From Longimicrobiales bacterium (GTDB lineage Bacteria > Gemmatimonadota > Gemmatimonadetes > Longimicrobiales > Gaopeijiaceae): DNA of 64,000 bases. Each line of letters starts with the position of its first letter. Within the stretch, counting starts at the first letter, position 1. Location: assembly GCA_965202985.1 (NCBI GenBank), contig CBDBCF010000002.1:480001-544000 (forward strand). Reading direction: 5' to 3'. Below, in pieces: positions 13,001 to 14,243 of this stretch. The translations under genes were made by a program, and so were the position numbers. The notes beneath the pieces are model-generated. The model had not been told where the DNA came from. It made no database searches and was given only the letters and a program-made list of their open reading frames with translations.

Positions 13001-13452
13001 GCCGGCTCGGCCTCCACGACCACCTTGACCTCGACCTCCACGTCGGGTCCCAGCCGGACCGGCACCCGGTACTCGCCGACGGCCTTGATCGGCTCGTCCA
13101 GCACCACGTCCCGACGGTCCACCTCGAAGCCGACGCCGGAGGCCGACGCCTGCTCGGCGATGTCGCGGGTGGTGACGGAGCCGAACAGCTTGCCCTCGTC
13201 GCCGGCCTTGGCGGCGAAGGCCAGCGTCTTGCCTTCCAGCAGGGACGCGCGGCGGTTGGCCTCCAGGTAGTCCCGGCGGGCCTGCTCGGTTCGGCGACGG
13301 CGCTCTTCCTCGATCCGCTTGACGTTGGCCTCGGTCGCCCGGTAGGCGAGGCCCTTGGGGATCAGGTAGTTGCGGGCGTAGCCGGGCTTCACGTTCACCA
13401 CTTGGCCCGGCGACCCCAGGTGCTCGACGGCCTCGCGCAGAATCAGCTTCAT
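12997..13452 (-). CDS. rplI: 50S ribosomal protein L9
   Basis: [34 protein letters not shown]. Confidence 0.96.
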
Positions 13453-14243
13453 GCCACGTGGTCCTTGGTGTAGGGAAGGAGCGCCAGGAACCGGGCCCGC
13501 TTCACGGCCGCGCCCAATCGCCTCTGGAACGCCGCCGTCACCCTCGTGGTGCGCTTGGGCAGGATCTTCCCCTGCTCGGTCAAGAACCGCGACAGCGTGG
13601 CCACGTCCTTGTAGTTGAGGAGCACCACGGGCGGTCCCTCGTGGCGCCGGCGCCGGCCGCGGGTGCCCGAGAACTCGGGCGGGCCGGAACGGGGCGGCGG
13701 CGCGGGGCCGGCGGACTCGTCCGCCGATTCGTCTGGGGCCGCTTCGCCTTCCGTGGCGGCGGCTTCTCCCTCGATCGCGGCTGCTTCCGGCGTCTCGGGT
13801 TCGCCGGGCGCGGACGCCGCGTCGCTTTCGTCGGCTGCATGGGCGGCCCCGTCGTCGGTTTCCAGCGGATCGGCTTCGAGCTGGTCGGCGTCGTCCTCCG
13901 AGGCTTCGTCCGCCAGGTGGGCGGCGTGCGGTCGGCTCGCCAGCAGCGACGCGCCCGACGTGGACTGTCCCTTGTTCAGGACGATGAGGTGCCGCAGCAC
14001 TTCCTCGTCCAGCTTCACCAGCCGCTCGAACTCGGGCAGCGCCGTGGGGTCGGCGGAGAACTGGGCGACCGCGTAGTAGGCGGTTTGCGCCTTGGCGATG
14101 GGATACGCCAGCTGGCGGACGCCCCAGTGGTCCAGCGCGGTGACTTCGCCGTCCAGGACCGAGTGGAAGGCGTCCAGCTTGGCGTCCACGGCCTCCCGCT
14201 CCAGGGAGGCGTCCATGACGTAGACGATCTCGTAGGCTTTCAT
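13449..14243 (-). CDS. rpsF-rpsR: fused 30S ribosomal proteins bS6-bS18 with acidic linker
   Basis: N-terminus is bS6 ([21 protein letters not shown]); C-terminus is bS18 ([24 protein letters not shown]...[13 protein letters not shown]); no intervening stop. Confidence 0.9.

Follow-up and report, generated by a model that had tools for sequence, protein, structure and literature searches.

In a family of the order Longimicrobiales (Gemmatimonadota), rpsF and rpsR are joined into one gene, which encodes the ribosomal proteins bS6 and bS18 in a single chain. The fusion is a real, fixed variant of this family, and very likely one of single origin that supplies the obligate bS6:bS18 pair as one polypeptide. 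Core ribosomal proteins are almost always separate chains. The window discussed below is the whole 64,000-nucleotide stretch of DNA that was analysed from one such genome, in which the locus has these features:

14259..14314, minus strand: rpsF leader of the S6:S18-binding type, with a stem, a CC pair at 14267-14266 and a GGGGAG SD-like element at 14264-14259
13449..14243, minus strand: rpsF-rpsR fusion ORF (bS6-linker-bS18), 264 aa, with domain matches at curated cut-offs
13968..14243, minus strand: bS6 core, aa 1-92 (PF01250 at aa 4-88, TIGR00166 at aa 1-89)
13938..13967, minus strand: conserved bS6 C-terminal extension, aa 93-102 (G92, G97 and S99 invariant in the family alignment)
13686..13937, minus strand: acidic tether of variable length, rich in Ala/Asp/Glu/Pro, aa 103-186, a lengthened form of the earlier bS6 tail (disorder predicted, pLDDT <50)
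13629..13682, minus strand: junction arm PPEF..G.GRRRR.EGP, aa 188-205 (column conservation in 77 sequences)
13452..13628, minus strand: bS18 core without zinc ligands (C-minus type), aa 206-264 (PF01084 at aa 209-256; Cys absent)
12997..13452, minus strand: rplI (bL9), with an ATGA overlap with the fusion ORF
12638-12979 and 9136-12633: rsfS, then smc, downstream of rplI (from domain searches)

Read from 14243 to 13449, the ORF has 264 codons and no internal stop. Its product is matched by the Pfam S6 profile at aa 4-88 (E 5e-23), by the Pfam S18 profile at aa 209-256 (E 2e-19), and by TIGR00166 and TIGR00165, both above their curated cut-offs, with the NCBIfam and Pfam bS18 matches taking in aa 207-261. 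Translation, Pfam and NCBIfam thus bear out the original prediction of a single uninterrupted 264-codon bS6-linker-bS18 ORF, which lies on the minus strand. Two further particulars of it held: the TGA stop (13451-13449) overlaps the rplI ATG (13452-13450) as ATGA, coupling the two genes, and the bS18 part is free of Met and Cys, the whole protein having Met at residues 1 and 10 only and no Cys. Residues 93-186 (94 aa) comprise 26 Ala, 25 Asp/Glu, 10 Pro and 2 Lys/Arg. A search of the whole window genome, which is 92% complete, returned a single S6 match and a single S18 match, both being the fusion ORF. Divergently from the fusion gene, the window encodes a 360-aa protein (14456-15538, plus strand) with a weak class II aldolase/adducin domain that falls below all NCBIfam cut-offs.

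Such an ORF could also result from loss of a stop codon through an error of assembly or sequencing, and S6-S18 pseudo-fusions do exist in databases: some entries, the P0136 group, are frameshift errors that keep an internal Met and the CxxC. For the window, contigs (not raw reads) of four runs from three studies were compared. Contigs X1, X2 and X7 cover the whole stretch in one piece and X4 covers 13300-14242, all with no frameshift, and the suggested check of the linker for a lost stop or indel accordingly came out in favour of the fusion. The sole indel is a 3-nt in-frame insertion in the linker of X7, an independent strain whose 20 substitutions make it the most distant contig; the near-identical X1 and X2 possibly gave rise to the assembly. 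Sponge metagenomes contain near-identical DNA.

We then translated 101 loci of the family, from 80 genera, and found rpsF and rpsR fused in 94 of them, representing 76 genera; the bS6 and bS18 profile check on relatives, likewise suggested at the outset, thus turned up single ORFs with both domains across the family. The other seven loci comprise two that are frameshifted and still have a fused-type junction (G352 and G343, whose congeners are fused), two that end at contig edges (G319 and G290), one that looks foreign (G326), and two, in the genera represented by G329 and G332, with truly separate rpsF and rpsR. A broader sample comprised 146 family genomes; S18 was matched in 142 of them, and in 135 of these the match lay in an open frame of at least 183 aa. 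With 94 fused genomes in 76 genera, agreement of contigs from three studies and a junction that is both derived and conserved, an error has a practically negligible probability; it is refuted by the family-wide conservation.

Among the matches listed, both domains are present in 120 of the 120 top homologues, and those that carry a name are Gemmatimonadota proteins called just ‘S18’; most of the named genome records that contain the fusion bear Longimicrobiales or Gemmatimonadota in their titles. In GTDB the family is probably UBA6960. From named records, 53 loci were examined: 50 are fused, one has an N-gap in the linker, one a frameshift inside S18, and one is an unfused Deinococcus locus. 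The names that NCBI gives to the fusion proteins are S18 or S6 only, as a consequence of which one of the two genes looks missing. Three loci stand out as probable bin contamination or mislabelling: the rpsF-rpsR loci L107 (G326) and L097 (G152) are unlike their phylum, and L043, titled Gammaproteobacteria, has a Longimicrobiales-type fusion.

In two sister families the S18 frame is short in 66 of 71 and 69 of 73 genomes with a match, as it is in most of the rest of a 141-genome sample of the phylum; three frames in that sample, of 135-137 aa, cannot accommodate both domains and were not included. A set of 15 long-frame outgroup loci consisted entirely of separate or incomplete genes, as did others among the sister-family loci; thus, a long open frame alone is no proof of fusion. 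Translation of 75 loci from outside the family gave 72 separate (one of them, G589, with a false S18 hit), 2 fused and 1 incomplete. The unpublished genomes G025, G052, G103, G116, G166, G175 and G413, and other flagged ones, enter the outgroup tallies only, except that G116 is also one outgroup row in the junction table and the short tree; the conclusions are independent of them.

As to origin, we derived a quick RpoB tree of 25 rows with SH-aLRT, not bootstrap, support. G332 was left out as too short (177 aa), and the window genome, G022, G026 and G036 had no match. The family forms a clade (SH-aLRT 99) in which the 16 fused rows together have the unfused G329 as their sister (98), indicating one origin of the family fusion; in the short S6+S18 tree the G329/G332 pair is unresolved among sister-family rows. 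With regard to RpoB itself, neither a family search nor tblastn found rpoB in the window genome (2 contigs, 92% complete), so at least that region is missing from the assembly. In family f2 the RpoB open frames (L168-L170, in G096, G039 and G027) reach ~1790-1850 aa vs ~1400-1540 in sister families, which suggests large insertions.

In both G329 and G332 a gap of +3 nt, in frame, separates the bS6 stop from the bS18 ATG, and bS18 begins MAPP or MPPP, followed by the CxxC; the fused proteins have Pro-Pro at the place of this start. The leaders of these two genomes also show the extra helix of the family. Most simply, the family fusion arose by loss of one stop codon. In-frame +3 gaps occur in unfused sister-family genomes too (6 cases), and hence the in-frame state permits fusion and does not force it. 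That no ssb/priB or other gene lies between the two parts had been pointed out in the original prediction; this is correct, but the arrangement is ancestral, as sister-family loci already lack ssb/priB and have rpsF and rpsR adjacent. The course of events that we envisage starts from an ancestor with rpsR in frame, one codon past the rpsF stop, as still seen in G329 and G332. Loss of the stop would have turned the acidic bS6 tail into a tether, and, then or simultaneously, the bS18 Met and the CxxC...C..H zinc site would have been replaced by the Pro-Pro/aromatic/Arg-rich arm. Fixation was probably easy, both proteins being always needed 1:1, and reversal would be hard once the bS18 start signal was gone.

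The acidic segment has a median length of 45 aa with 19 D/E in 77 fused sequences and ranges from 34 to 173 aa, that of the window being among the long ones. Unfused sister-family bS6 tails measure ~25-27 aa with 11-12 D/E, and the comparison supports the proposal that the covalent tether is the ancestral acidic bS6 tail. A linker of ~100 aa was correctly foreseen for the window (94 aa, residues 93-186) and does not hold as a family norm; its start also needs revision, given that aa ~93-102 are a conserved bS6 extension and not variable linker. What found no support is the idea that the fusion serves to place a large polyanion at the 30S platform: the acidic tail is older than the fusion; an unfused bS6 in family f7 (L144, G414) has an acidic Ala/Glu/Asp tail well over 100 aa; the segment length varies over the range given above; and fused genomes use the SD like unfused ones (see below). 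RimK-type modification of the tail was rejected as a candidate, as the best RimK-family match in the window genome, ahead of a weak second one, is LysX. This LysX-type ATP-grasp ligase (L287; G000:C1:796843-797400, minus strand) is above the TIGR02144 cut-off and suggests a carrier-dependent lysine or arginine pathway.

Beyond the tether, the junction arm occupies the place of the bS18 N-terminus and CxxC knuckle of unfused relatives. Its columns P,P,E,F,G,R,G,R,R,R,R,E,G,P are conserved at 83-100% in the 77 sequences, with an aromatic residue at the F position in 75 of them; the fused genus g50 lacks the PPEF part. The bS18 part is devoid of Cys in 93 of the 94 fused loci, the lone Cys sitting at a non-ligand position, and nearly all unfused loci of the phylum have three Cys in bS18. 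The window protein has neither the CxxC nor the distal Cys/His zinc ligands of C+ bS18. By sequence, the bS18 part of the fused proteins also has no conserved start codon of its own. In the window protein no Met follows residue 10, and the only in-frame GTGs stand 2-3 codons ahead of the core; ATG, GTG and TTG are all absent from the 40 codons preceding it in 32 of 78 fused sequences. Eight codons before the core stands Met in 21 of the 78, Val in 19, His in 18 (including the window) and Ile in 15. The codon there is ATG or GTG in 30, and internal starts are therefore possible in some members, though not in the window protein.

A highly conserved motif at the end of a disordered stretch, itself disordered in the structural model, could mark a cleavage site, at which the whole chain would be cut (PPEF..G.GRRRR) to free ordinary bS6 and bS18. 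We consider such a polyprotein improbable. The motif resembles the N-terminal arm of ordinary bS18, with its aromatic residue and Arg run (as in L097, an alphaproteobacterial-type copy); its Pro-Pro matches the unfused bS18 start in G329 and G332; and it is missing from other fusions, as its PPEF part is from g50. Moreover, no Prp-type protease was found in the window genome, in which, at 92% completeness, PF04327 has 0 matches (the control matched in 3 of 14). The reading that we prefer, a fusion that acts as one chain, predicts an intact 29-kDa product in cells; if the chain stays intact, synthesis at a fixed 1:1, as originally envisaged, would follow.

The search for further fusions combined long S18 proteins with a profile search. 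In family f4, which belongs to another order, 296 of 301 genomes matched, only the top loci were translated, and more fusions could exist; two genomes of genus g231, G548 and G590, are fused and Cys-free (L178, 183 aa, and L177, 190 aa, respectively), and the locus of their congener G501 (L289) is separate with three Cys. The S6+S18 tree of 147 columns has 5 changes of state, with the f4 fusions placed among f4 rows, and an AU test on the 147 columns does not reject joining the family fusions with those of g231 (p 0.19). The case for their independence comes from taxonomy, from the differing junctions and from G501 as an unfused congener, and does not rely on the AU test. On these grounds, fusion with zinc-ligand loss probably occurred at least two times in one phylum.

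This co-occurrence raises the possibility that fusion to bS6 is a repeatable route to a zinc-free bS18, with the tether selected as a stabiliser, the tether and a new RNA-binding arm replacing the metal site, and fusion and zinc-site loss forming one adaptive step. We regard this zinc-saving account, and the repeatable route that it implies, as rather doubtful. Both fusion events with genome context, in the family and in g231, coincide with loss of all ligands; in addition, the Gemmatimonadota-like fusions P0197, P0202, P0204, P0185 and P0249 are Cys-free, and the error-like P0136 group keeps Cys along with an internal Met. The C+ and C- forms of bS18 are tied to zinc homeostasis (PMC9976891). 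However, only two independent events come with context, and in genus g144 (L176 in G547 and L291 in G378) a Cys-free, zinc-free bS18 is a separate gene, from which it follows that zinc loss needs no fusion. Unfused C-minus bS18 is, moreover, present in many bacteria, which further counts against the zinc-saving account. In G547 the bS18 ATG directly follows the bS6 TAG, in frame, one mutation from fusion. If the account were true, the before-and-after pairs (G329/G332 vs the family; G501 vs G548/G590) would offer a test of chain separateness and zinc-site loss. The fused bS18 shares with known C-minus forms the lack of CxxC and C..H ligands; the best described of these, however, are zinc-regulated paralogs beside a C+ copy (PMC9976891), whereas no copy other than the fused bS18 was found here, and this one stands at the ancestral locus.

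Further afield, among 148 newly listed representatives, 35 of non-family type possess both domains in full, some with linkers of 9-15 aa; P0298, P0300, P0360 and P0364 are compact S6-S18 fusions of 155-168 aa with linkers of 9-16 residues. Of 20 non-family fusions looked up, 8 occur as several sequences or contigs and 12 as single ones, which may be errors; one fusion has the automatic JGI name ‘ribosomal protein S18/ribosomal protein S6’. These database fusions have the identical domain order but differ in their linkers, which span 9-88 aa where measurable, mostly lack a long acidic tether, and have no PPEF arm. The claim of a natural fusion thus stands, and the family-wide spread, the loss of the bS18 zinc ligands and the recurrence in other lineages, on which the original prediction was silent, extend it. 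Its authors' impression that no natural fusion had been described also agrees with our search: no description was found in open-licence PMC and bioRxiv, subscription papers lying outside it. The available portions of PMC7203096 and PMC10931766 do not mention a natural bS6-bS18 fusion, and in that of PMC3353972 the words ‘fusion’, ‘fused’ and ‘S18’ are all absent. The portion of PMC2837039 available makes no mention of a natural bS6-bS18 fusion, and the rows for rpsF and rpsR in its supplement precede the ‘mixed’ headings.

The canonical bS6:bS18 heterodimer (PDB 1G1X, 4YBB, 7K00) is matched here in both domains, above cut-offs, and in the retained rpsF-rpsR-rplI order and leader; in contrast to it, there is one chain, with no stop after the tail and with the bS18 start Met and zinc site gone. 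No PDB chain with both domains is found in the best 60 of 170 sequence matches or in the best 50 fold matches. AlphaFold2 gives the window protein a pLDDT of 57 and a pTM of 0.39; its bS6 is modelled well, its linker as disordered and its bS18 poorly (~50). With a deeper alignment, a 206-aa family member reaches pLDDT 79.7 and pTM 0.72; in its model the two domains are confident, disorder is confined to aa 106-141, and the bS6 extension is ordered, with a beta-bridge at residues 103-104. The bS6 part of the model superposes on solved bS6 at 1.2-2 A rmsd, with a ferredoxin-like fold. The pTM of the 206-aa model suggests, and is consistent with, packing of the two domains in cis, but that of the window protein is low; fusions elsewhere with linkers of 9-15 aa indicate that the geometry allows cis pairing.

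The leader upstream of the fusion ORF was called from pattern counts and single-sequence folds, and an Rfam search of this region gave no match at E up to 5. Its strict pattern occurs in 66 of 78 fused loci vs 7 of 3900 shuffles; of the 12 fused loci that it misses, 11 have what looks by eye like a variant. One fused locus, L035 (G044), is without the otherwise conserved motif. The features of the window leader match those given for the S6:S18-binding leader in PMC3895269. The S6:S18-binding rpsF leaders (PMC3895269, PMC4647458, PMC3854524) share with it a hairpin, the CC pair and a stem that can hide the SD; it differs from them in a ligand predicted to be a single chain and in having no Rfam hit, and leaders of the family have an extra short helix before the CC. 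In E. coli it is the S6:S18 complex, and neither protein alone, that represses rpsF (PMC4647458); given this, the fused chain is probably its own repressor, acting through the leader.

Finally, bS6 and bS18, with bS21, belong to the anti-SD platform of Bacteroidota, and in Flavobacterium the pocket that holds the anti-SD is lined by bS6 and bS18 (PMC7797042). The fusion is, similarly, a change particular to one lineage that affects these proteins at this site, and one might suppose that the tether or the arm, whose near-invariant aromatic residue and Arg run could bind RNA, masks the anti-SD or alters initiation as in that phylum. We compared the share of predicted genes with a strong SD to that in an upstream control window; as starts were called from codon usage, and from 0.3-0.4 Mb for the four non-window genomes, the figures are rough. 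Among fused genomes these shares are 13.8 vs 3.1% in the window genome (2195 genes) and 19.4 vs 6.7% in G012 (180), and among unfused ones 22.2 vs 6.0% in G329 (167), 22.7 vs 2.4% in G038 (255) and 13.3 vs 2.9% in G039 (240). The two fused and three unfused genomes thus have a positional SD peak of 13-23% vs 2-7% in the control. No consistent shift in SD spacing emerged among the genomes compared. The anti-SD is canonical and bS21 is present. The SD peak retained in the two fused genomes does not fit a genome-wide lack of SD of the Bacteroidota type, and the difference from that platform is twofold, SD use being kept and the change being a fusion, not a bS6 helix. With the SD peak kept, the anti-SD canonical and the tether length not conserved, such remodelling of the platform is very improbable.

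On the reading that we favour, of one chain serving as the obligate pair, bS6 would fold first and the tethered bS18 would dock on it in cis, in the usual geometry. The fused chain would then bind the 16S central domain once uS15 has primed it, and would turn to its own leader when in excess, such that one polypeptide would be both ribosomal unit and autorepressor, and the tether a loose loop with length and charge weakly constrained.

The surprise is limited insofar as other bacteria have evolved the same architecture and the evidence points to no new function. Nevertheless, a single chain has become the fixed form of two core ribosomal proteins in at least 76 genera of uncultured Longimicrobiales, which makes the S6-S18 fusion a clean clade marker. 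The family also provides natural single-chain S6-S18 designs for studies of assembly and autoregulation. Moreover, the lineage keeps the likely ancestral state, such that the passage from in-frame neighbours through stop loss, zinc-site loss and tether growth is readable and testable.
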